NCBI GenBank assembly: GCA_048884965.1
Contig: JBHLQH010000004.1
Location: 96,001 to 160,000 of the forward strand
DNA length: 64,000 nt
DNA from: Candidatus Thorarchaeota archaeon
GTDB lineage: Archaea; Asgardarchaeota; Thorarchaeia; Thorarchaeales; Thorarchaeaceae
Reading direction: 5' to 3'
Part shown: positions 594-14,802 of the stretch, piece by piece
How the letters are laid out: every line of letters starts with the position of its first letter
Numbering within the stretch: the stretch's first letter is position 1
Program-made: the position numbers and the translations under genes
Notes under the pieces: model-generated
Seen by the model: the letters and a program-made list of their open reading frames with translations, nothing else
The model's database searches: none
What the model was told of the DNA's origin: nothing

Positions 594-1115
594 TTGGTAG
601 TCTTCGCAGTATACGATCCGATCAAACATGAACGAGATTTTATTCAACTCAATATCGAATACATAGGATGGATTGCAGACCAAGTACTCAAACGCTATGG
701 AATTGATTTTCTGAAATCTACGGGAATGTCTGTAGAAAAGTACGTTCGGACAAATTACGAGAATTTCATATCTGTGCCAGTAGAAGAAGGGAGACTATTG
801 ATTCTTGAAGATTCTGGAAAAGTAATAGGAATGGGTGCCCTTACCAAACATGATATGGACGAAGGCGAGATCAAACGAATGTATGTCAAACCTGAGTATA
901 GGGGAAAGGGATTTGGAAAGAAGCTTTTGATGAAACTTATTGATATTGCTAAAGATCTTGAGTATACTGCTCTACGATTGAATACGGGGGGATTCATGGA
1001 TACTGCACAGTATGTTTACACTAGTGTCGGATTCAGGAAAATACCTGAATATACAGAGTCCGAAGTGCCAATTCCTTTGAACCATCAATGGTTTTTCATG
1101 GAGTTGGAATCGTAG
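594..1115 (+). CDS. GNAT family N-acetyltransferase
   Basis: GEIKRMYVKPEYRGKGFGKKLL acetyl-CoA binding motif A; C-terminal A..YTSVGF motif; start uncertain (TTG). Confidence 0.9.
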   Translation: MVVFAVYDPIKHERDFIQLNIEYIGWIADQVLKRYGIDFLKSTGMSVEKYVRTNYENFISVPVEEGRLLILEDSGKVIGMGALTKHDMDEGEIKRMYVKPEYRGKGFGKKLLMKLIDIAKDLEYTALRLNTGGFMDTAQYVYTSVGFRKIPEYTESEVPIPLNHQWFFMELES

Positions 1116-1124
1116 GAACAGAGT

Positions 1125-1916
1125 TCATGTTCGTATGACTATTATTTGCCCCTGTCTACTTACACCAAGTTGCAGGTTTCCTTTGTAGGCGTTGACATAC
1201 GCATTCTCAAGTATGATGTCTTCACCCTCATTAACCTGTCTGATAGTATCATTCCACAGAACCAGTTTCACTGATCCTGTTTCATCAGTGAATGTCACAT
1301 TTGCAACTTGGAGCGGTTTGCCGTCTTTTGAAATTACGTCTCTTGTTTCAGATACTTCTTCAATTCTACCTTTGATTTTTAGTCCTTTCATCCCATCTTG
1401 AAGGTCTTTTATCAAAACATATGATGGCTCATAGGAGTCATCGGTTATCTTCACGTAATATCGCAAATCGAAAACCGGGACCCATCGTAGAATGCCTTCC
1501 TGTCTGAATCCTATCTTCTCATAGAATCCCTTTGTTCTAACATTCCATTCAGGTGTATCAAGAGTCCACTTCTTTACCTTAGGGTAGTTGCTCTCTATTA
1601 GTCGAAATGTTCCTGTCCCAATTCCTTTACGATGAAATTCAGGATCAATGAATACACCATAGATGTATGCATGCTCTTCTGATACCTTGTAGACTCGTGT
1701 GCCTCCAACGATCTGCCCATTGAAAAGAAATTTCCAATAATCTGTTCTCTCGCTTTTGGTATCTCGTCTATGTGCTTCAACTGAGTCATAGCCATCTGGA
1801 CCTCCGGGACCAGGTGCTCCGACATCCACATCAGAATCAAAAGCTCGTTTCGAGATATTAGCAAGAATCTCAGCATCTTGCGGTTTTGCAAGTTCTATCG
1901 AAATCAGTCCTGTCAA
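1125..1916 (-). CDS. GNAT acetyltransferase fused to a C-terminal SSB/RPA-type OB-fold
   Basis: N-terminal FIDPEFHRKGIG...FYEKIGF (GNAT); C-terminal IKDLQDGM..IKGRI..DETGSVKLVLWN..ENAYVNAYKGNLQL (archaeal SSB/RPA OB fold); TTG start 3 nt after the uvrA stop, with GGAGGGG SD upstream. Confidence 0.88.
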   Translation of the reverse strand: MTGLISIELAKPQDAEILANISKRAFDSDVDVGAPGPGGPDGYDSVEAHRRDTKSERTDYWKFLFNGQIVGGTRVYKVSEEHAYIYGVFIDPEFHRKGIGTGTFRLIESNYPKVKKWTLDTPEWNVRTKGFYEKIGFRQEGILRWVPVFDLRYYVKITDDSYEPSYVLIKDLQDGMKGLKIKGRIEEVSETRDVISKDGKPLQVANVTFTDETGSVKLVLWNDTIRQVNEGEDIILENAYVNAYKGNLQLGVSRQGQIIVIRT

Positions 1917-1919
1917 TCC

Positions 1920-4808
1920 TTACCCCTCCTGAATGACATCACTTAGGAACCTGCCAGTGAATGATTTGTTGTCTTTGGCTACATCTTCTGGCGTTCCAGT
2001 TGCTATTACCTCTCCACCCTCATCGCCACCTGATGGTCCCAAATCTATGACATAATCCGCACTCTTTATGACGTCCATATGATGCTCAATGACTAGTATT
2101 GTATTCCCTTGTTCTACAAGTCGATTCAAGCAATCTAAGAGCTTTTGAATATCAGCGAGATGGAGACCTGTTGTTGGTTCGTCGAAAATGTATAATGTAT
2201 CACTCGATGCCTTCAATTTTCCAAGCTCTTTTGAAAGTTTGATACGTTGAGATTCGCCTCCACTCAACTGATTCGATGGCTGCCCAAGCTTGAGATATCC
2301 AAGACCTAACTCATCCATGGTCTTAAGCTTGTGATGAATCAGATTTACATCTTCAAAGAAGGTCATTGCCTCTTCTACAGTCATGTCGAGGACCTGTGCA
2401 ATGTTCTTTCCTTTGTACTGAATCTCAAGGATTTCTTTTGTATATCGATCACCTTTGCATGCGGGACAGATGCTCTCGATATCAGGCATAAATTGCAATT
2501 GAGTAGTGACTATTCCCTCACCTTTGCATTCAGGACATCTACCACCACTATTCTGATTGAAGCTGAAATCAGCCATCTCGTAGTGATTATCTTTTGCCTC
2601 AGGGAGGTCAGCAAATAGTGAACGTATCTTATCAAAGAAACCAACGTAGGTTGCCGGATTTGACCTAGAAGATCGCCCTATGTTCGTCTGATCGATATTC
2701 CTCACATCTCGAAGATTCTCAATTCCTTCAATTCTATCATGTTTACCCGGGATGATTCGCCTATCTCTGAAGACAGAGTGCAGTTTCTTGTAGAGAATCT
2801 CATTGATCAAGCTACTCTTTCCAGATCCAGATACACCAGTAATGCACACGAAGAGACCGAGAGGAATCTCTACGTCGACACCTTTCAGGTTGTTCTCTTG
2901 TGCGTTGAAAATCCTTAATGCATGCCCATTGGACTGTCGACGGTGCTCTGGTGTCTCAATCCTTTTCATTCCTCTAAGATACTGCCCAGTAACAGAGTCC
3001 TCATTTTTCTGAATATCTGCAATAAGCCCTTGAGCGATAACTCTCCCTCCATGAACTCCTGGACCGGGACCCATCTCAATTATGTAATCTGCGGCCTTCA
3101 TCGTTTCAACGTCATGCTCGACAACTATTACCGTGTTACCGACGTCACGTAACTTTTTGAGAGTATCAATTACTTTAGTTCCGTCTCGAGGATGAAGTCC
3201 GATTGAAGGTTCATCAAGAACAACAAGCATTCCCATAAGCTCCGATCCAATCTGGGTGCTTAGTCTAGTTCTCTGCAGCTCACCACCAGAGATAGTGTCA
3301 GCCCGACGATTCAGACTAAGGTAGTAGAGACCAATGTCTAGCATCAGGTCAATCCGTTTTTTCAATTCATCAAGAATAGGACCTGCGATATGCTCCTTCT
3401 CTGCAGGAGTCTGAATATTATCAAGGAATGACCGTAGTTCCTGCAAGGGCAGGATAGATAATTCATGGATAGTCCTGTCGCCAACCTTCACAAGCATCCG
3501 TTGAGGAAGAAGCTTTGTACCTTTGCAATCAGGACACAGACTCTCGACCATGCGTTTCTCAACCCAATTGTACCCAGGGTCATTCTGCTTGCGTTCCTTA
3601 CACAAACGACGATACCATGCATCCAATCGGGGCACAATCCCTCTGAAAGAGAACATCTTCCCAAAGTTTTCGTGGTCCCTAAGCTCATCAGGAGGACGTA
3701 GCATCTCAAACTTCTCACCACCTGTTCCATAGAACAGTTTGTGCTTTACATCCTCAGATAGTTCCTTGTAAGGTGTATCTAATGAGAAGCCAAAGTGCTC
3801 CCCCATGCTATAGGCCATACAATAATGCCAGTTAATGATGCGTTTGTAAGTGCTGGGATCTATATTCCATGAACCTCTATCAATAGCTCCTTCTCGTAGA
3901 CTCTTATCGGGATTTGCCACCATAAGGATAGGATTTGCTGTCATATGAGTGCCTAACCCCCCACAAGTTCTGCAAGAACTATCACCTTCATTCGAGGAGA
4001 AGTACCATGGGAGAAATTCGCCAGCTAGAATATGATGTTCAGAGCATGACAAAGATGAGTAGAATTCCGAGGATTTCGGAGCATTCTCCGGATTTGTTAT
4101 ATTCAGTCTGAGAAATCCTTCTCCAATCCTCAGACACTCGATGATAGAATTCACGATTTGCTTTGTCTGATCTCCATTTATTGTGAACTTGTCCAAGATT
4201 CCTTCAATACGATACTCCTCTTCCTCGTCAAGCTCTATATTATCAGAGGTGCTTCTTAGTTCACCGTCGAGCCTGATATTTCTGCAACCATGATTTCGTA
4301 TCTCATCGATGAGATACTCATAGTTCTCACCATATACCTTGAAGAACGGAGCTAGAATCTCGATGGTAGTTCCTTGTGGCAATGATTGAATATGTTCAGC
4401 GATTTGATGTGGAGTCTTCGCGGGAATCTGACTTTTACAATATGGACAATGAGGTATACCTACTGTTGAGAATAGCAAGCGTAAGTATGTCTGTATCTCT
4501 GTTAGGGTTCCCACGGTGGATCTTGGATTTCTCACCCCACGAGCTTGAGAGATCGAAAGAACAGGAGAGAGACCTTTTACCGAGTCCACTGCTGGTTTCT
4601 TGATCAATGGTATGCGAGACCTTGCGTAGGCAGAGAGCGACTCCATGAACCTGCGTTGACCTTCTCCATACAGAACATCGAACGCAAGTGATGATTTTCC
4701 ACTCCCTGACACACCTGTAACCACGGTTAGTTTGTCACGAGGAATCTCGACATCTATATTCTGCAGATTATTTTCGCGAGCTCCTTTGATACGCACAGTT
4801 TTGCTCAT
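1920..4808 (-). CDS. uvrA: UvrA-family ABC ATPase (excinuclease ABC subunit A-like)
   Basis: GARENNL start, two GVSGSGKSS Walker A motifs, ISGGE/LSGGE signatures, [23 protein letters not shown], Zn-module CxxC pairs; 962 aa. Confidence 0.97.
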
Positions 4809-5749
4809 AGCATCTCACTCTCCATGCATAGGTATCCTGCCTCATAAACCTCGAATCGACTCCTACTTGTAAGCTTCAACGGATACACCATCTTTTGGAG
4901 TAGTCCCAACCTTGCAAGAAACTCGCAGGATGAAATCAGTGTGAAGGTATCATTGCGATTAAGCTTCTTTCTAAAATGCTTGTCAATCTGCGATATGCCA
5001 CAATGACCACCTTGTTCAAGGATATAAGCAGCAATAGGCTCGAAGAGAATGTCAGCGTATTTCTCTAAATAACTCTGGCAGAGATTATAGCCTGTTTCGC
5101 AAGCTTCCAGGGTCACACCTTCTTCAAGCAGAGAGAAATAGCTCTTCCCGAAAAGATCAGGATTGTATTTCCTTGCTTGTAGAGTGACCTCTCGAGATGG
5201 AACATCACCATGTGACAGAACTTCCAGATGAGCTACTTGAAGTATCAATCCGTTAAGCCATCTGAATGCCAACATGGCATCTTTCTGATGTACGATACTC
5301 TTGCGAACTTTACTCAAGTAACCAAGCGCGTTGTCAGCATAAATCATCATCCCAAGTGATTTGTCTCTGTCACCAATCCGAGAGGGATTCTCATAATATT
5401 CTGTTATCGTATCATCATTAGAGAATAGCAATTTACCAGTATATATGATATGATGGAGAACAGAGCCTTGTAAAGGAACATCCATCCAATCTCGAAAATT
5501 CTTCCTTGAATGGACATCAATTTGAATCAGGATATCACCATCCTTCAGCCAATGTTGCTGATATGGAAGAGATTCATCCTTAGTTATGATTAGCATGTCA
5601 ATATCGGATTCAGACCACACATCCCCACGCACCAGACTCCCATAGACAATTGCCGCAAGGATATTGGAATCTCTTTGTAGTTGTTCAACAAAGGAATCAA
5701 GGGCTGAGGTATACTCAGCAATTATATCGTTTTGTCTGTCCACACTCAT
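4805..5749 (-). CDS. Pol-beta-superfamily nucleotidyltransferase with helical and C-terminal winged-helix-like domains (YgxA-like)
   Basis: [17 protein letters not shown] (GS..DxD) plus a third Asp in IQIDV; stop overlaps the uvrA start (ATGA). Confidence 0.8.
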
Positions 5750-5753
5750 TAAA

Positions 5754-6635
5754 TCACTTCTCCTTTATAGGGTGATATAAATCGAGCATGAAATCACCAT
5801 CACTTCCGTCCGGTGATAGTGCATGTTCAAGGCAAGGTCCTTTAGCCATCATGTATTTGCTTGATCTAACCCATTCATCCAGCTTCTTCCAGCTTTCAAG
5901 ATACCCATTTTCCTTGAAGAATTCAGATTCAAGCTCCTCTGTCAAGTTACACGTAATGACAGCAAAGTTCCCACCCTTGAACTCTTTATACTCCATACCC
6001 TCCAAGAGCTCATATTCTCTGTCAACTACCATCCAGAACTCGTATCCATACTCCGAACTACCAGGTTCAGGATTCGGATTGTTGAAACCATAGACAGGGT
6101 GTTTCCGAGGTTTGTTAAGCAAACCCAGAGGTTCAGCCCACTCACGCATCTTCTGCCATGCATCGTTCTCTGGGGAACGACTTATTACTCGAACACTTAC
6201 AACTCGATGAGGATTGAGCTTCACTATGCGAACATCTGATTCTTCGATATCATCTGTTTTCTTTGAATGAGCCTTCAGTATTAGCTCTGCGCGTTTCGCG
6301 GATTCCGCATTCCTACGCCTCACGGATTTTGCATAGGTCTCAACGATTGCAGATATGAAGAGAACTCCATCATCGGTTATTTCATACAGACCGCGTTTCG
6401 GATTAGAAATCATCTCAGCTGATAATAGCTTTGAAAGGTGATGAGCAAGGGCTGTTTTGCTTAAACGAACAACATGAAGAAGATCATCAAATTCCTTGGG
6501 ACCTTGAAGAAGTGAGGAAAGCATCTCGAGCCGGGACCGATTGGAGATAGAGGAGAGGAGATATTCTATATCATTAGTGAAATCATCAAGTATTGATGAC
6601 CATTGATGTCTTTTCACCTTGCTCATCTTAACCAC
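5754..6635 (-). CDS. ArsR-like winged-HTH regulator fused to a GyrI-like small-molecule-binding domain
   Basis: SNRSRLEML..LSKTALAHHLSKL..GLYEIT (wHTH); VRIVKL..PENDAW..YGFNNPNP..YGYEFW..CLEH (GyrI-like). Confidence 0.85.
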   Translation of the reverse strand: MVKMSKVKRHQWSSILDDFTNDIEYLLSSISNRSRLEMLSSLLQGPKEFDDLLHVVRLSKTALAHHLSKLLSAEMISNPKRGLYEITDDGVLFISAIVETYAKSVRRRNAESAKRAELILKAHSKKTDDIEESDVRIVKLNPHRVVSVRVISRSPENDAWQKMREWAEPLGLLNKPRKHPVYGFNNPNPEPGSSEYGYEFWMVVDREYELLEGMEYKEFKGGNFAVITCNLTEELESEFFKENGYLESWKKLDEWVRSSKYMMAKGPCLEHALSPDGSDGDFMLDLYHPIKEK

Positions 6636-6764: not shown

Positions 6765-7358
6765 CTAGATGTCAAATTCTAGCTTGTTTTCTTCCCACCA
6801 TTGCCGCCATTCTTTCATAATCCGTTCTCGTCCGGACAGTGTAATGCCATCGACAAAAGAAGGCCCAGGATTCCCAAGCAGGCGTCGTAGCATCACAATT
6901 TGCCCCATGTGACCCATATAATGATAGGCCATCCTGTACAGGGTTTCTAACAATGATTCACTAGGATTACCTGCAAAAGCTTGGTAGAATTCGGAGGGCT
7001 CTAATCCACGAAGATACTCCTTGTTACAATCACTCATATTGAGATAAGTATCAAGTAAATTACGGAATGATAAAGGAGGATGGATGCGTGAAATCTCATC
7101 CTTGGTTGTTCCATAGCGAAAGTATTCACACAACTCTTCAGAATAGAACCGGGTATTTTGACATGTCAAGTTCACAACCCAATGGTAATGAACAGCGCAA
7201 TGACCAAAAATCCATCCTATAGAATTCAGCATTGGTGAAGCTGATGCATATATTTGATCTGATGAAAGACCCATCAAAGAGTGAAGTAGGTTGCATTCTG
7301 CAATCTCAACTGAAGCTATGCCTATTTGTGCGACATTGAGTTCCATGTAAACACCCAC
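6765..7358 (-). CDS. DinB/YfiT-superfamily protein
   Basis: NSIGWIFGHC...YHYMGHMGQIVMLRRLLG His-triad pattern. Confidence 0.85.
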   Translation of the reverse strand: MGVYMELNVAQIGIASVEIAECNLLHSLMGLSSDQIYASASPMLNSIGWIFGHCAVHYHWVVNLTCQNTRFYSEELCEYFRYGTTKDEISRIHPPLSFRNLLDTYLNMSDCNKEYLRGLEPSEFYQAFAGNPSESLLETLYRMAYHYMGHMGQIVMLRRLLGNPGPSFVDGITLSGRERIMKEWRQWWEENKLEFDI

Positions 7359-7520: not shown

Positions 7521-10424
7521 ATGAAGCGCACGCTTATTCTTATCATTTTAGTAATATCCACATTCATGGTCTTCAATCCAACCCCACAGAATCAATCACC
7601 TTTTGTTGAACTCGGAAGGGAGATTTCTATTATTGAAGACTTCAATGATAGTGGAGAGAAGCAGGATGTGACTGTCCGCTTTGATAGAGAGCTAACTCTA
7701 TCAGAGATAGAATACTATGAGAGTAGAGGTATAGACTTCGGAGAAAAGATTCAGAACATCGGTTCAATATACATTGTGAAAGCATCACAACTTGCCCTAG
7801 ACAATCTTGGGAAGGATACTAGGTTTGAGAGCACAGAACCACTGAAACAACCAAGGTATCAAATGCCAAGAGATGTTTCGATAACTGATTGCTATGCGGA
7901 TATCGCTCAACAAATGCAGGACTACTATGGATGCAACCTTACAGGAGAAGGGATTCTAGTTGCAGACTTAGACACTGGCGTTCAGTGGAGACACCCGGAT
8001 TTCTTCTTTGCCGATGGACCGAGTATACACTACTTTGAAACTTCAGGGACTCCACCGAATATGTGGATTTTCAATAATGGAACAGATGGAGTAGATCTGA
8101 ACAACAATTTCGCAATCGAAAGCAACGAGAAGCTCTATGCAATTGATGTCAATGAAAATGCCGCAATAGATGCTGATGTCGATTGGATATGGTTAGATAA
8201 TGGAACCACAGTAGGGGCTATTGATGATGGTGATGCATTCTTTGCAGTAAACGATACAGACTCCGATAATGTAGTAGAAGGTGTTGATTACTTAGTCAGA
8301 TTAAAGACACCTAAGACGAAGTATCTCGTTCACAAGGTGTCTGGATTCATTCAAGCTTGGGAGAGAGGAGTCAATTTAACTTCAAGTACATTCTATGATA
8401 CGGATGGACATGGTACTGGTGTAGCAGGAATTCTAAATGGAGGGCAATTAGGGTATAGAAAATATGTCGGAGTTGCACCTGACGCAGAGCTCATGGCCAT
8501 CAATATCTTTGGTAATGATGGCCTTACAGTAGAGGAAGGGCTTGTCTATGCAAGAGATCATGGAGCAGATGTGATACTCATAGAGGTAGGCTCTTGGACG
8601 TATGAGTTCTTAGATGGATCCAGTAATGTCGAATTAATGATTGATACACTAACAGCAAGTGGCATACCGGTTATTGTGCCGGCTGGAAACCTTAGAGGAG
8701 CAAATCGACACGCAGCAAGAACTGGAACAGCCAATACCATACAATCAACGGACTTCCGAATCCCAACATCACTTGGAGCGACAGAAGTATATCTCACAGT
8801 TCTTTGTGACAAATTGGTGAATAATGCTCAAGTGAATATCACCGAGCCAACTTCCTCAGGCAGCATTGTACACCAGCTCAGTTTCGGAATCGGTTACTAT
8901 CAATGGACCACTGCATCATATGGCGTTAATGTCACAATAGATGCGTTCATTGCGAATTCAACGAGAGCTGGTTGGTACATGATTGCTGTTGATATTAGAG
9001 GAACTATAAAGGACACATCCTACTGGTCTATTGATATTGAGAATACTCAGAATGCTCAATATCACTTCTACATCTCTGATGACGCAAGTGCATGGAGTGG
9101 AGGAGCAGAATGGTATGGACCACATGGAGTCACGAATCAAAATACGATTACATGGCCATCAACAGCGGATACAGCAATATCTGTTGCATCATATCACACT
9201 AGATCAATATGGGCAACAGCAGGTTCTTTGGCGTCGTTCTCATCAGAAGGTCCCAGAGTTGATGGAAATAGTAAGATGTCAATTGCTGCGCCTGGAGGAT
9301 GGGATGTCATCTCAGCATGGTCAAGTGACTCTGCATGGGCAACATGGTATGATAATTACGGAGGTCTCGCGTTAGATTCCGTATTTGGAGGATATAGACT
9401 CTTTAGCGGAACTTCAGCATCTGGACCTCATGTTGCTGGGGCAGCAGCACTTATCCTCCAGCTCAATGCAGATTGTGGTTCAATTGTTAAGGACATTATC
9501 GAATCCACAGCATATAATGACGGGTTTACAGGAGTGATACCTCCGCCACCCGGGGTAGCGAATATCGGTTGGGGGTATGGTAAGCTTAATGTTTCAAATG
9601 CAATAGAAGAAACGATGAAGCTCCCCGTCATCTGGGAAGTACAGGAAAATCCCTTGCCACCAGAATACAATGAAACATTCGTTGTAACAGTCAATGTGTC
9701 AAATGCTGATTTTGTGGTCTTCGATTGGACTTCCAACGCTTGGTCATCAATGATTCATTCAAACATGACTCTATCTAGTGGAGTGTATACAGCTTCAATA
9801 CCTAGTCATGCGTACTCAACTGCTATAGAATACAAAGTGATACCGATCAACTCCTCTGCTATTGGAGGACCAGTATATGGTGGAGATTACACTGTTGTAG
9901 ACACTATTGCTCCTGTAATAGGTTCATACTGGCATAACGCTACAGGGACAGTTGTTGATCCAACATTCATAGACATCGCCATCCAAGCAACGGAACCCGT
10001 AAACGCATCAGGCATATGGGCAGTGGATATAGAGTTCACACTGGATAACTGGGTATCTATAAACTACATCACAATGACCTACAATGGAACCCATTGGATT
10101 GGTATGATAACCCCCGCACCAGCACCATTCACTGTCCAGTTCAGAGTCGCGGTATGGGATAATGCGATGAACATAGCAAGGACATCCAGCTTCTCGTACA
10201 CTGTGACACCGGCAACGACTACGACAACAACTACAACCACTACAACCACAACGACCACAACAACAACTACAACAGATACAGGTACTACTTCGGATACTAT
10301 TACTGGACCGACAACGACTTTCAACTTGCCAGAATGGATTCAAGAAAACATGACCTTGGTGTTAGTTGCTGGAACAATCCTGTTGCTGCTGATCATCATA
10401 GTAGCGTGTAGGCGACGGAACTAG
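7521..10424 (+). CDS. Secreted, membrane-anchored S8 (subtilisin-like) serine peptidase with Ig-like modules and a Thr-rich stalk
   Basis: Signal peptide; DLDTG, HGTGVAG, GTSASGPHVAG catalytic motifs; C-terminal TM helix followed by RRRN. Confidence 0.93.
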   Translation: MKRTLILIILVISTFMVFNPTPQNQSPFVELGREISIIEDFNDSGEKQDVTVRFDRELTLSEIEYYESRGIDFGEKIQNIGSIYIVKASQLALDNLGKDTRFESTEPLKQPRYQMPRDVSITDCYADIAQQMQDYYGCNLTGEGILVADLDTGVQWRHPDFFFADGPSIHYFETSGTPPNMWIFNNGTDGVDLNNNFAIESNEKLYAIDVNENAAIDADVDWIWLDNGTTVGAIDDGDAFFAVNDTDSDNVVEGVDYLVRLKTPKTKYLVHKVSGFIQAWERGVNLTSSTFYDTDGHGTGVAGILNGGQLGYRKYVGVAPDAELMAINIFGNDGLTVEEGLVYARDHGADVILIEVGSWTYEFLDGSSNVELMIDTLTASGIPVIVPAGNLRGANRHAARTGTANTIQSTDFRIPTSLGATEVYLTVLCDKLVNNAQVNITEPTSSGSIVHQLSFGIGYYQWTTASYGVNVTIDAFIANSTRAGWYMIAVDIRGTIKDTSYWSIDIENTQNAQYHFYISDDASAWSGGAEWYGPHGVTNQNTITWPSTADTAISVASYHTRSIWATAGSLASFSSEGPRVDGNSKMSIAAPGGWDVISAWSSDSAWATWYDNYGGLALDSVFGGYRLFSGTSASGPHVAGAAALILQLNADCGSIVKDIIESTAYNDGFTGVIPPPPGVANIGWGYGKLNVSNAIEETMKLPVIWEVQENPLPPEYNETFVVTVNVSNADFVVFDWTSNAWSSMIHSNMTLSSGVYTASIPSHAYSTAIEYKVIPINSSAIGGPVYGGDYTVVDTIAPVIGSYWHNATGTVVDPTFIDIAIQATEPVNASGIWAVDIEFTLDNWVSINYITMTYNGTHWIGMITPAPAPFTVQFRVAVWDNAMNIARTSSFSYTVTPATTTTTTTTTTTTTTTTTTTTDTGTTSDTITGPTTTFNLPEWIQENMTLVLVAGTILLLLIIIVACRRRN
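10201..10320 (+). repeat. ACN-codon low-complexity repeat encoding a poly-Thr linker
   Basis: More than 20 consecutive Thr codons with mixed third positions. Confidence 0.9.
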
Positions 10425-11723: not shown

Positions 11724-12161
11724 ATGATGTCGAATATTGAAGAGATCGTGGAACTGTTTACGAAAATTCTAGAGTCAGTCACCTTTGCCATTGAAGAGCT
11801 GGAATTCAATCAGCATCAGGTAGGGAGAGGTATTTTCATCATCGATTATATTGGGAATAATGAACCGTGTAATCTGAAGGATATCTATGAGAATACAAAA
11901 TTCCCTCCAAGCACAGCGTCTCGAAGGGTAGACGAGCTCGTGAAAGCTGGATTCATTGAAAGAGCAAGATCAGAAGAAGATAGACGAGAAATCATTCTTC
12001 AATTGACTGAGGATGGTCTTACAGTCTTCAGGATCTTCAGAGATCATCGAATCAAATCGCTCAAGCAATTTCTCAAGTCATTTGATTCGAACGAGGTTGA
12101 AAACTTCACGCGGATTCTTCGACACCTTGTAGATAATCATGAAGATATCTTTGTCATCTAA
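11724..12161 (+). CDS. MarR-family transcriptional regulator
   Basis: STASRRVDELVKAGFIER..SEEDRR..LQLTEDG. Confidence 0.92.
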   Translation: MMSNIEEIVELFTKILESVTFAIEELEFNQHQVGRGIFIIDYIGNNEPCNLKDIYENTKFPPSTASRRVDELVKAGFIERARSEEDRREIILQLTEDGLTVFRIFRDHRIKSLKQFLKSFDSNEVENFTRILRHLVDNHEDIFVI

Positions 12162-12235
12162 TGGTTGTAGTCCTGTCAACAAAACTAAGTAGAACATAAT
12201 GCATACCATACTCACGTGTATTGGGAGGTTATCCA

Positions 12236-13075
12236 TTGAGCATAGAATTACCTGAGATAGAAATTCTATCCAAACAGATGAATGAGATAATGACTTCAAA
12301 GAGCATATCTGATGTGCGTGTGGAGAATTACGAAAAGCTCCAGAATTCAAGCTTCTTCAATAAGGATACCACTACGTACAGTAATCTTGTTGGTTGTAAA
12401 ATTAGGGAAGTTACAGGAAGAGGAACCGTCATCAGAATCAGAATGGACAAAGAAAGGAATCTCTTGTTAGCTCCAGAAATGGGCGGAGAGCTTAGATTGT
12501 TCTCAAACGAAGCTGATATGCCTAAGAAATATCATCTTCGAGTGGACTTCACAGATGGCAGTATCTTCTCGATCTATCTGAAAGGGTATGGATTAGTTTA
12601 TGCCTCAAATGATTCGAATCTCTCCAATGTCTACTCGTATAACAGAGATTTCCTTAATGGAGTTTCACCATTAGAAGAGGATTACACACTTGATTATGTA
12701 AAGAGAGCCCTTGAAGAGAAAGATAGGAATCTGAAGACCCTACTCGTAGGGAAAGAAGCCATTGTTGTAGGATATGGTAATGCAGGATTCCAAGAGATCG
12801 CATTTGATTCTGGAATTCATCCCAAAAGAAAGAGTTCGACACTATCCATTACAGAAAAGAAGGCTCTGTTCAAGGCTATTAGAAGAGTCACAGATATGAG
12901 AATCAAGCAGGGAGGAAAGGACTCATTCACCGATCTATTCGGGAACAAAGGAAATCATGTTCCACTGATTGGAGGACATCTGAGAGATATGGCATGTCCA
13001 AAGTGCGGTACGATCATCGAGAGGTTGATGTTCGGTGGTGGACCTACCTATCTTTGTCCATCTTGTCAAATCTAA
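12236..13075 (+). CDS. Fpg/Nei-family DNA glycosylase-like protein with an atypical N-terminus
   Basis: ELPE N-terminal motif, H2TH region (LKTLL..GYGN..GIHP), C-terminal CPKC..CPSCQ zinc finger; GGAGGT SD at 12224-12229 favours TTG 12236. Confidence 0.88.
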   Translation: MSIELPEIEILSKQMNEIMTSKSISDVRVENYEKLQNSSFFNKDTTTYSNLVGCKIREVTGRGTVIRIRMDKERNLLLAPEMGGELRLFSNEADMPKKYHLRVDFTDGSIFSIYLKGYGLVYASNDSNLSNVYSYNRDFLNGVSPLEEDYTLDYVKRALEEKDRNLKTLLVGKEAIVVGYGNAGFQEIAFDSGIHPKRKSSTLSITEKKALFKAIRRVTDMRIKQGGKDSFTDLFGNKGNHVPLIGGHLRDMACPKCGTIIERLMFGGGPTYLCPSCQI

Positions 13076-13896: not shown

Positions 13897-14802
13897 TTAC
13901 TCCCAATCAATAATCCGAGTGATGCCACTCTCACCAAGCTCACAGACTAGCTTCAGCTCCGCAAGAATACTTGTCCATCCGACATCATAACCAACCGCAG
14001 CTTCAGGAGATTTAAAGCCATGATGATGGAGGCTAACAAGGGTCGAATCCTTTACCTCTTCAAAGCGAATATTCACCAATGTTTCGGGTTCATCTCCGTA
14101 GACCCAAGTGAATTCGAGCTCTTTCTCGGGAATCATTTTGCGAAATATTAGCGGACCTTTTCCCTCTGCCCACCATGTATAGATACCAGCATATTGTCTA
14201 TCAACGACTGGATCATCAGCTCGAATGAAATGTCGAAGCTTCTCTGGATTCACCCAAACATCAAAAGGCAAAACTGGAGGAGCTCGTATGAGAACACTCA
14301 GCCGAATATCCTGAGAATCATACGGAGTTACTCTTAGAGGATGATAATCAGTATAATCGAACTTGAAAGCAGGTTCGCCTAGCTCAATCACAGCCTTGAA
14401 ATTTGCCAAAAGGATATTCCAGTGATCTGAAAGATGAAGGTCCTTCGCTCCATCTGGTATCGCCCCATGCTTCACATCTATTTGCGTTCCAATGGGGATT
14501 GCAACGAACCGAATGACAAAGAGCGTTTCGGAGCCGAGGATGCCCCAGCTAAAGAGTATAGCCCTAGGGGACTTATAGCGCCGAATATTCCAGGTGTTCT
14601 CCATCTCTGGCGTTGTGGGTGCATTCTTACCAGAGAAGCGAATGTAACCATGGGGGGATAAATCAGCGCTGATTTCATTTCCCAACCATTGTGTCATAAT
14701 GACAGGATTAAGGAAGCTCTCCCATACCTCATCTAGCGGATGAGCTATCCGAACTGACAGGTGAATGATAGGCATTACATCCTCCACTGGCTGTTCAGCC
14801 AC
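13897..14802 (-). CDS. Tandem SRPBCC (AHSA1/START-like) domain protein
   Basis: Two repeats of I.AP...VW...NP ... F.W ... H ... W...LA.(F/L)K. Confidence 0.85.
   Translation of the reverse strand: MAEQPVEDVMPIIHLSVRIAHPLDEVWESFLNPVIMTQWLGNEISADLSPHGYIRFSGKNAPTTPEMENTWNIRRYKSPRAILFSWGILGSETLFVIRFVAIPIGTQIDVKHGAIPDGAKDLHLSDHWNILLANFKAVIELGEPAFKFDYTDYHPLRVTPYDSQDIRLSVLIRAPPVLPFDVWVNPEKLRHFIRADDPVVDRQYAGIYTWWAEGKGPLIFRKMIPEKELEFTWVYGDEPETLVNIRFEEVKDSTLVSLHHHGFKSPEAAVGYDVGWTSILAELKLVCELGESGITRIIDWE

Follow-up and report, generated by a model that had tools for sequence, protein, structure and literature searches.

In a contig of Candidatus Thorarchaeota archaeon (GenBank assembly GCA_048884965.1, contig JBHLQH010000004.1), a GNAT-family acetyltransferase appears to be fused to an OB fold of the kind found in single-stranded DNA-binding proteins (SSB), and its gene lies directly behind a uvrA gene. 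We analyzed a stretch of 64,000 nucleotides around this gene, corresponding to positions 96,001 to 160,000 of the contig and referred to here as the window. The locus, which had been noticed in a preliminary description made from the sequence alone, raises the question of whether the fusion, here called GNAT-OB, is genuine and, if so, what an acetyltransferase would do on single-stranded nucleic acid in the company of a repair gene.

The fusion gene and its family

GNAT-OB was found to be one uninterrupted open reading frame (ORF) of 263 amino acids (Table 1). Its N-terminus aligned with the starts of its homologues (MTN.../MAD...), and the sequence GGAGGGG, located inside the 3' end of uvrA, preceded the start codon. 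In line with the preliminary description, a complete GNAT domain was joined in frame to the OB fold, with both Pfam models scoring above their cut-offs. Specifically, Acetyltransf_1 (PF00583) matched residues 56-137 (E-value 1.1e-11; 45.4 bits against a cut-off of 20.7) and Ssb-like_OB (PF21473) matched residues 193-258 (E-value 1.7e-10; 41.4 bits against 24), while PF13508 and PF13673 likewise exceeded their cut-offs in the GNAT domain. The junction, which had been placed near position 1430, fell within a linker of 12 residues. In the AlphaFold2 model, this linker lacked regular secondary structure between the strands at residues 151-157 and 177-188, apart from a short helical turn at approximately residues 169-171; its predicted local distance difference test (pLDDT) score was above 89 throughout, and D159 was near-invariant in the homologues. 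The model of the whole protein reached a pLDDT of 94.2 and a predicted template modelling score of 0.87, a confidence that suggests a fixed arrangement of the two domains.

A search of 5.8 billion proteins returned approximately 280 homologues, nearly all of 262-266 amino acids and carrying both Pfam domains, from NCBI, JGI, ENA and Logan, where they are annotated merely as 'GNAT family N-acetyltransferase'. The possibility that separate GNAT and SSB genes had been joined by mis-assembly or by a frameshift was refuted because the same ORF of 262-266 amino acids was present on hundreds of independent contigs from these four sources, including the closed chromosomes CP070784 and CP070760, with the linker conserved; no observation in favour of such an artefact was found, and we give it practically no chance. 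This search of architecture and taxonomic spread thus confirmed that GNAT-OB is an intact two-domain gene and neither a singleton nor an assembly artefact.

Concerning the extent of the family, HMMER, run exhaustively against 1.84 billion cluster representatives, recovered roughly a dozen clusters (at 50% identity) of the full-length fusion, and a scan of 185,579 species genomes located the full fusion in 64 of them, belonging to the Thor-, Hermod-, Hod-, Heimdall- and Prometh(Loki)archaeota, the Bathyarchaeia (25 genomes) and the Theionarchaea (two genomes). Its distribution was patchy, with approximately 11 of 41 relatives carrying it. A second GNAT-OB paralogue, 43% identical, was present in the window's own genome (contig C26). 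In the phylogenetic tree, the window copy grouped with thorarchaeotal sequences only, and the paralogue belonged to another clade, inside the widespread group. Spread to bacteria was considered and rejected: the copies in Patescibacteria and Krumholzibacteriaceae metagenome-assembled genomes nested in the Bathyarchaeia clade on very short branches. The contigs binned to these two taxa, L045 (DATLAV010000029.1) and L063 (DATKWN010000031.1), are probably of archaeal origin and assigned to the wrong bins. The literature searches yielded no account of a GNAT-SSB/OB fusion, and the family, built from two well-known folds, is previously undescribed in the searchable literature.

Properties of the two domains

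The C-terminal domain bore, in alignments and in the predicted model, every sequence and structural hallmark of ssDNA or ssRNA binding. The motifs TDETGS, KLVLWND and ENAYVNAYKG, recorded in part in the preliminary description (DETG, LVLWN, NAYVNAYKG), were present in the protein, and its assignment of the domain to the SSB/RPA class was borne out by sequence and by structure. In a phmmer search of the PDB, residues 171-256 matched the Sulfolobus protein SsoSSB (1O7I/2MNA) with an E-value of 1.2e-10 and human SSB1 with approximately 1e-6, and a family profile lifted the SsoSSB match to 5.6e-16. The AlphaFold model of the OB domain alone (pLDDT 94.1), a five-stranded barrel, superposed on SsoSSB 1O7I with a TM-score of 0.86, a root-mean-square deviation (rmsd) of 1.4 Å and 30% identity. 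Its top Foldseek match was the hSSB1-ssDNA complex 5D8F (E-value 3.6e-8); the matches, which also included Pyrococcus RPA, RPA70, POT1 and TEBP, were ssDNA-binding OB folds only. Overall, GNAT-OB shares with SsoSSB and hSSB1/NABP2 (5D8F, 4OWW) a single OB fold at approximately 30% identity and TM-scores of 0.79-0.86.

Residue conservation was assessed in 40 aligned homologues of 43-75% identity. In SsoSSB, W56, W75 and F79 stack on the bases of ssDNA (PMC5346138). GNAT-OB retains this triad as Trp221, invariant in all 40 homologues, Tyr240 (aromatic in 39) and Tyr244 (F or Y in 40), with a lone His as the only exception among the stacking aromatics. Furthermore, R28 and I30 of SsoSSB align with R192, basic in 37 of 40, and V194, aliphatic in all 40. 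SsoSSB binds ssRNA and ssDNA equally well via the same residues, and it melts lesion-containing duplexes (PMC5346138). Because OB folds of this type bind both nucleic acids, DNA and RNA targets are inseparable by sequence; weak matches to the tRNA_anti-codon OB family (E-value 1e-4) were also obtained, under the Pfam cut-off. The C-terminal ~95 residues matched the archaeal SSB and RPA models of NCBIfam at scores far under equivalog level (best 66.8 bits against a cut-off of 176 for the cellular-SSB equivalog PRK06461), which argues for an SSB-like domain and not for the cell's own SSB. Unlike SsoSSB and hSSB1, GNAT-OB ends at the last OB strand, lacking the flexible C-terminal recruitment tail, and it carries a GNAT of 160 residues at its N-terminus.

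The GNAT domain looks catalytically competent, as judged by the conservation of its acetyl-CoA motif and of Tyr132. In motif A, sought as Q/R-x-x-G-x-G/A, H95 was conserved in 38 and G98 in 39 of the 40 homologues, and position 100 was G or A in all of them. Tyr132 within FYEKxGF, which is at the usual position of the general acid in GNATs, was invariant in the homologues, as were N125, R127 and D91, and it was also invariant in bacterial relatives consisting of a GNAT domain alone. The loop between helices alpha1 and alpha2 usually forms a wall of the acceptor site in GNATs. In the fusion family F26, D29, G38, G39, P40, Y43 and D44 of this loop were invariant, and F26, P40, G42 and Y43 remained so across GNAT-only proteins and other fusions. 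Two motifs define the subfamily, namely this loop (F..D....G....GGPxGYD) and the segment WTLxTPxWNxRT; both are shared with bacterial GNAT-only proteins of 150-165 amino acids, at 34-41% identity in the alignment and 40-46% over the stretches matched in the cluster-representative search. The mean net charge of the domain was approximately -4 across the 40 homologues.

By structure, residues 1-160 of the model resembled compact GNATs (VIA-align Z-scores of 15-18), among them 2PC1 (Z 17.9; rmsd 2.3 Å over 150 residues) and RimI 5ISV (Z 17.2). The neighbours comprised several proteins of unknown function together with RimI, archaeal Ard1, Naa50/60, PaiA/SpeG, ArsN and AAC(6')-Ib. When the whole model was used as query, the results of Foldseek and VIA were filled with generic GNATs and pointed to no substrate class, and a search of the ESM Atlas returned 'GNAT family' clusters only. 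With RimI, Ard1 and Naa50/60, GNAT-OB has in common the fold (Z 15-17), a Tyr at the general-acid position and, for RimI, a closely similar motif A (VDPDxHRKGIG). It differs from all of them in its own GGPxGYDS loop and TPxWNxRT motif and in its appended OB fold, and from RimI in a score of 31.1 bits against a cut-off of 86.4 for the RimI equivalog (TIGR01575), and in the position equivalent to RimI Glu103, which was Asp in 26 and Gly in 14 of the 40 homologues.

As a side observation, the same GNAT subfamily, recognizable by its GGPPGY loop, was encountered elsewhere fused to pentapeptide repeats of the DNA-mimic type, a SWIM zinc finger, a transglutaminase core or a metallo-beta-lactamase domain (proteins P0186, P0270, P0167, P0170, P0237). 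In a Gaiellaceae contig (L105 5001-6186), the gene for a GNAT-only relative overlaps by 11 nt a gene of the PF08713 DNA_alkylation (AlkD-like) family, to which it is translationally coupled; this is the one bacterial instance in which the subfamily was linked to alkylation repair.

Table 1. Coordinates of GNAT-OB, its domains and key residues, and associated genes (window positions unless a locus is named)
Feature	Position	Strand	Description or basis
GNAT-OB gene	1125..1916	-	263 codons plus stop, TTG start
GNAT acetyltransferase domain	1443..1916	-	Residues 1-158; Pfam PF00583, structural alignment
Alpha1-alpha2 loop, F26..D29..G38-G-P-x-G-Y-D44	1785..1841	-	Subfamily-specific; homologue alignment
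GNAT motif A, H95-R-K-G-I-G-T-G102	1611..1634	-	Acetyl-CoA pyrophosphate loop; homologue alignment
Tyr132 in FYEKxGF	1521..1523	-	Invariant in 40/40 homologues
Interdomain linker	1407..1442	-	Residues 159-170, 12 residues
SSB/RPA-type OB fold	1128..1406	-	Residues 171-263; phmmer, profile, domain model, Foldseek
Trp221	1254..1256	-	Aligned with SsoSSB W56; W in 40/40 homologues
Tyr240 and Tyr244	1185..1199	-	Aligned with SsoSSB W75 and F79; homologue alignment
UvrA paralogue	1920..4808	-	Full-length, 962 aa; TIGR00630, 1118 bits; upstream neighbour
Pol-beta-type nucleotidyltransferase	4805..5749	-	PF18765, E-value 2e-12; ATGA overlap with uvrA
ArsR-type winged helix-turn-helix (ArsR-wHTH) + GyrI-like regulator	5754..6635	-	Heads the co-oriented array; domain search
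Stand-alone second GNAT	594..1115	+	Convergent with GNAT-OB, 9-nt gap
Toroid gene, L187	8067-9101		G000:C4:90066-91100
Toroid gene, L186	10938-11909
Toroid gene, L050	2717-3754

Gene neighbourhoods in the window and across the family

A first clustering of neighbours at the 64 genome loci produced generic ABC, TPR and MFS neighbours only. Links to the repair of DNA adducts surfaced only with targeted tblastn and HMM neighbour searches, which covered these loci plus 80 additional metagenome loci. In the thorarchaeotal locus L050, a UvrA-like gene, a gene for a toroid protein of ~330 amino acids, three unknown ORFs, GNAT-OB and a gene for an AlkZ-like glycosylase, AlkZ being a crosslink glycosylase, were all co-oriented; in the window's own genome, a unit of a double UvrA, the toroid and AlkZ lay 6-8 kb from GNAT-OB. 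In the heimdallarchaeotal locus L092, GNAT-OB was accompanied by a nucleotidyltransferase (NTase) and by a uvrA with 54% identity to that of the window. The toroid gene was located directly downstream of GNAT-OB in two further lineages (L183/L185/L186 and L071/L072), a toroid gene and a gene for a UDG-family glycosylase preceded GNAT-OB in L119, and, as weak evidence, an AlkZ gene was located 5 kb from GNAT-OB in L176/L177. The toroid, typically of ~325 amino acids, belongs to a family with a single-barrel squalene-cyclase fold (alpha/alpha toroid) that has 2376 database matches, mostly labelled 'hypothetical'; this family is far larger than that of GNAT-OB and is common in Asgard archaea and Bathyarchaeia. 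Prediction of a complex between GNAT-OB and the adjacent toroid of L186 gave a score of 0.00, which is no verdict and was counted neither way. PADLOC returned no match for GNAT-OB, and no conserved small antitoxin-like neighbour, the hallmark sought for a type II toxin-antitoxin pair, was seen across the 64 loci.

In the window, GNAT-OB is indeed directly downstream of uvrA, with 3 nt between the uvrA stop codon and its own start. It is the last gene of a co-oriented array of ArsR-GyrI, NTase, uvrA and GNAT-OB, with successive spacings of 4 nt, an ATGA overlap and 3 nt, and it appears to be co-transcribed with the ArsR-GyrI sensor, the NTase and the UvrA paralogue. As uvrA and GNAT-OB are in the same frame, separated by TAA and one GGA codon (1917-1922), read-through into one protein was considered and rejected: the frame relation is lost in the related genome G006, and it is probably coincidental. 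Besides a double UvrA of 1647 amino acids, the window's genome encodes four UvrA proteins of full length (uvrA loci G000:C14:36678-44334, C3:1798-4557 and C4:91157-95989), and since uvrB is found next to a tandem pair of uvrA genes on contig C14, the uvrA of the window is a paralogue remote from uvrB.

The fate of this array in relatives showed that the uvrA adjacency is specific to one lineage, decays in its relatives, is missing elsewhere and is not a trait of the family. In G006, a deletion of ~3.6 kb has left a scar (L019 10366-10734) in which the N-terminal ~57 residues of the NTase are joined in frame to the C-terminal ~64 of UvrA, with an intact GNAT-OB behind it; in G003, an NTase stub alone remained (L020 4427-4606), again with an intact GNAT-OB. 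A close metagenome contig (L107) retained uvrA followed by GNAT-OB, both intact. On a further metagenome contig of 74 kb (L108 9102-10792), an ArsR-GyrI gene, whose product is 75% identical to that of the window, preceded GNAT-OB by 8 nt with neither NTase nor uvrA between them. ArsR-GyrI was kept upstream of GNAT-OB in L019/L031, L020/L030 and L108, and in this clade the regulator, rather than uvrA, is the steadier partner of GNAT-OB. Across the family, a UvrA-family gene was present in the flanks of three independent lineages only, which does not correspond to membership of a UvrABC operon.

In G003 and G006, the stand-alone second GNAT is found at the corresponding place, with 66% identity. 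Other genes near the array encode a DinB-superfamily protein (upstream), a MarR regulator followed by a Fpg/Nei-type glycosylase, and an AHSA1/START-like protein; these stress and repair genes are located at window positions 6765-7358, 11724-13075 and 13897-14802.

Candidate functions of GNAT-OB

The reading that we favour, while placing it somewhat short of an even chance, is that GNAT-OB is an acetyltransferase anchored to DNA that is single-stranded or has been opened by damage, and that it serves a genotoxin or DNA-damage response. The OB fold would park the enzyme on single-stranded nucleic acid and, because SsoSSB melts lesion-containing duplexes, its target could be DNA destabilized by damage. 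The GNAT domain would then pass the acetyl group from acetyl-CoA to a nearby amine, candidates being a Lys or the N-terminus of a protein on the DNA, or the amine of a small molecule or genotoxin bound there. A cationic amine is a likelier acceptor than the nucleic acid itself because the acidic residues of the acceptor loop are invariant and identical loops are found among bacterial GNAT-only relatives; the negative net charge of the GNAT domain likewise fits a cationic acceptor better than a polyanion. These sequence features point to a protein or a DNA-bound small molecule as the probable carrier of the accepting amine. With regard to the process, the recurrent repair neighbours together with the local operon of the GyrI-like sensor make a response to bulky adducts or genotoxins the most likely one.

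The strength of the neighbourhood evidence was estimated in two ways. After relatives had been collapsed, leaving 64 lineages and 630 kb of flanking sequence, a gene of the repair modules (a UvrA paralogue, AlkZ, UDG, the NTase or, most prominently, the toroid) was present in seven to nine lineages, against approximately 1.2 expected from the window genome's own, high, density of such genes; the genes queried were in part chosen after the loci had been seen. Among 41 relatives, the toroid occurred in nine of the 11 genomes with the fusion and in four of the 30 others (Fisher p 9e-5), and two AlkZ copies in nine of 11 and one of 30, respectively (Fisher p 1.5e-6), both values being uncorrected for relatedness. 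This choice of queries and the neglect of kinship weigh against linking GNAT-OB to repair, as do several further observations. Approximately 85% of the lineages had no repair gene in the available flanks, with no neighbour universal, and the bacterial GNAT-only relatives had no consistent gene context. In L032, the four-gene cassette was absent and GNAT-OB abutted a subtilase gene, which in the window lies at 7521-10424. The two closest relatives have lost both uvrA and NTase but retain an intact GNAT-OB, which is thus independent of this UvrA. Furthermore, the GNAT-OB of L092 (5962-6735) is interrupted by one in-frame stop codon and deviates in its acceptor loop (GGLIGYNS); it may be a decaying pseudogene or reflect a sequencing error. 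The link to DNA repair drawn in the preliminary description was thus supported in part: it does not take the form of a stable operon with uvrA, but GNAT-OB recurs in modules with UvrA paralogues, AlkZ, NTase and toroid proteins in several unrelated lineages.

The unrelated neighbours found at most loci would also be expected of a general housekeeping enzyme that associates with ssDNA or RNA and acetylates abundant nucleic-acid-bound proteins, such as RPA/SSB paralogues, Alba, histones or ribosomal proteins, its repair-gene neighbours being incidental. The many SSB-like OB paralogues of these genomes would be possible substrates, and RimI, Ard1, Naa50/60 and HP0935 are among the nearest GNAT neighbours by structure or sequence. 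Nevertheless, repair modules occur beside the gene above expectation, the patchy distribution of the fusion is unlike that of a core factor, and both the RimI equivalog score and the residues at the Glu103-equivalent position depart from RimI, so that we regard this explanation as unlikely, albeit one to be taken seriously. Less probable again is an enzyme directed to RNA, in which the OB fold would bind ssRNA or tRNA and the GNAT domain would acetylate an RNA-bound protein or an RNA-linked amine, either on aminoacyl-tRNA, as the TacT/AtaT toxins do, or on a nucleobase, as does TmcA. The equal affinity of SsoSSB for ssRNA and ssDNA (PMC5346138), the sub-cut-off tRNA_anti-codon matches and an RNase III gene immediately upstream at one locus would fit such an enzyme; the lack of an antitoxin-like neighbour, the invariant acidic residues along the acceptor loop, a likeness to TmcA and TacT limited to the generic GNAT fold, structural neighbours of the OB fold that are ssDNA binders, and recurrent neighbours that are DNA-repair genes speak against it.

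A slim chance is left to a detoxifying or metabolic acetyltransferase of small molecules (a xenobiotic, an antibiotic or a polyamine) whose OB fold has lost nucleic-acid binding and serves as a dimerization, regulatory or substrate-recruiting module. Among the matches of the GNAT domain are the polyamine enzymes PaiA/SpeG together with ArsN, AAC(6')-Ib and streptothricin enzymes, the subfamily occurs without an OB fold in bacteria and fused to unrelated modules, and the local GyrI-like sensor, NTase and DinB would suit drug handling. Yet the stacking aromatics together with R192 and V194 are under strong purifying selection across 40-75% identity, a conservation that makes nucleic-acid binding hard to avoid.

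Returning to an acetyltransferase tethered to DNA, precedents exist for a GNAT recruited to nucleic acid through a binding surface that is either its own or attached to it, namely TmcA/NAT10, Elp3 and TacT/AtaT. GNAT-OB shares this concept with them, but it lacks a helicase, radical-SAM or THUMP module as well as an antitoxin partner, and no specific match to any of these proteins was present among its sequence and structure matches. Its targeting module is instead an SSB-type OB fold, a combination that was not found in the searched literature. A second comparison concerns the genotoxin self-resistance modules of actinomycetes, which comprise UvrA-like DrrC/Ecm16, the glycosylases AlkZ/YcaQ and AlkD/YtkR2, and GyrI-like hydrolases; similarly, GNAT-OB genes recur beside UvrA paralogues, AlkZ-like glycosylases and a GyrI-like regulator. 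An N-acetyltransferase has been reported among the conserved neighbours of YcaQ-like genes in Streptomyces (PMC9040887). In contrast to these modules, GNAT-OB is hosted by archaeal sediment lineages and not by antibiotic producers, no biosynthetic cluster was seen, and no GNAT-OB component has been described in the actinomycete systems. A profile of the GNAT subfamily gave no match in 301 Actinomycetota genomes at E≤1e-20, a result that is uninformative as a known relative was also missed.

A bolder version, which we consider rather doubtful, is that a lesion- or gap-targeted acetyltransferase forms, with UvrA paralogues, AlkZ and the squalene-cyclase-fold protein, an unrecognized anti-genotoxin system of Asgard archaea and Bathyarchaeia. 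Here, the OB fold would recognize ssDNA exposed at bulky adducts, and the GNAT domain would either inactivate a genotoxin on the DNA, by acetylating its amine in place, or mark repair proteins bound to ssDNA. If so, GNAT-OB could represent a prokaryotic precursor of the way in which acetylation controls RPA and hSSB1 in eukaryotic repair.

The present analysis adds to the preliminary description that the family is widespread, that its linkage to uvrA is lineage-specific and that the link with UvrA paralogues, AlkZ and toroid proteins recurs in unrelated lineages. A conserved GNAT-SSB/OB fusion implies acetyl transfer confined to single-stranded or damaged nucleic acid. If the link to repair is functional, GNAT-OB would offer a tractable biochemical entry point, as a soluble protein of 30 kDa, and an insight into how uncultured archaea handle bulky adducts and environmental genotoxins. 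Asgard archaea are the closest prokaryotic relatives of eukaryotes, and a functional link would also allow a test of whether the control of ssDNA-bound factors by acetylation predates eukaryotes.

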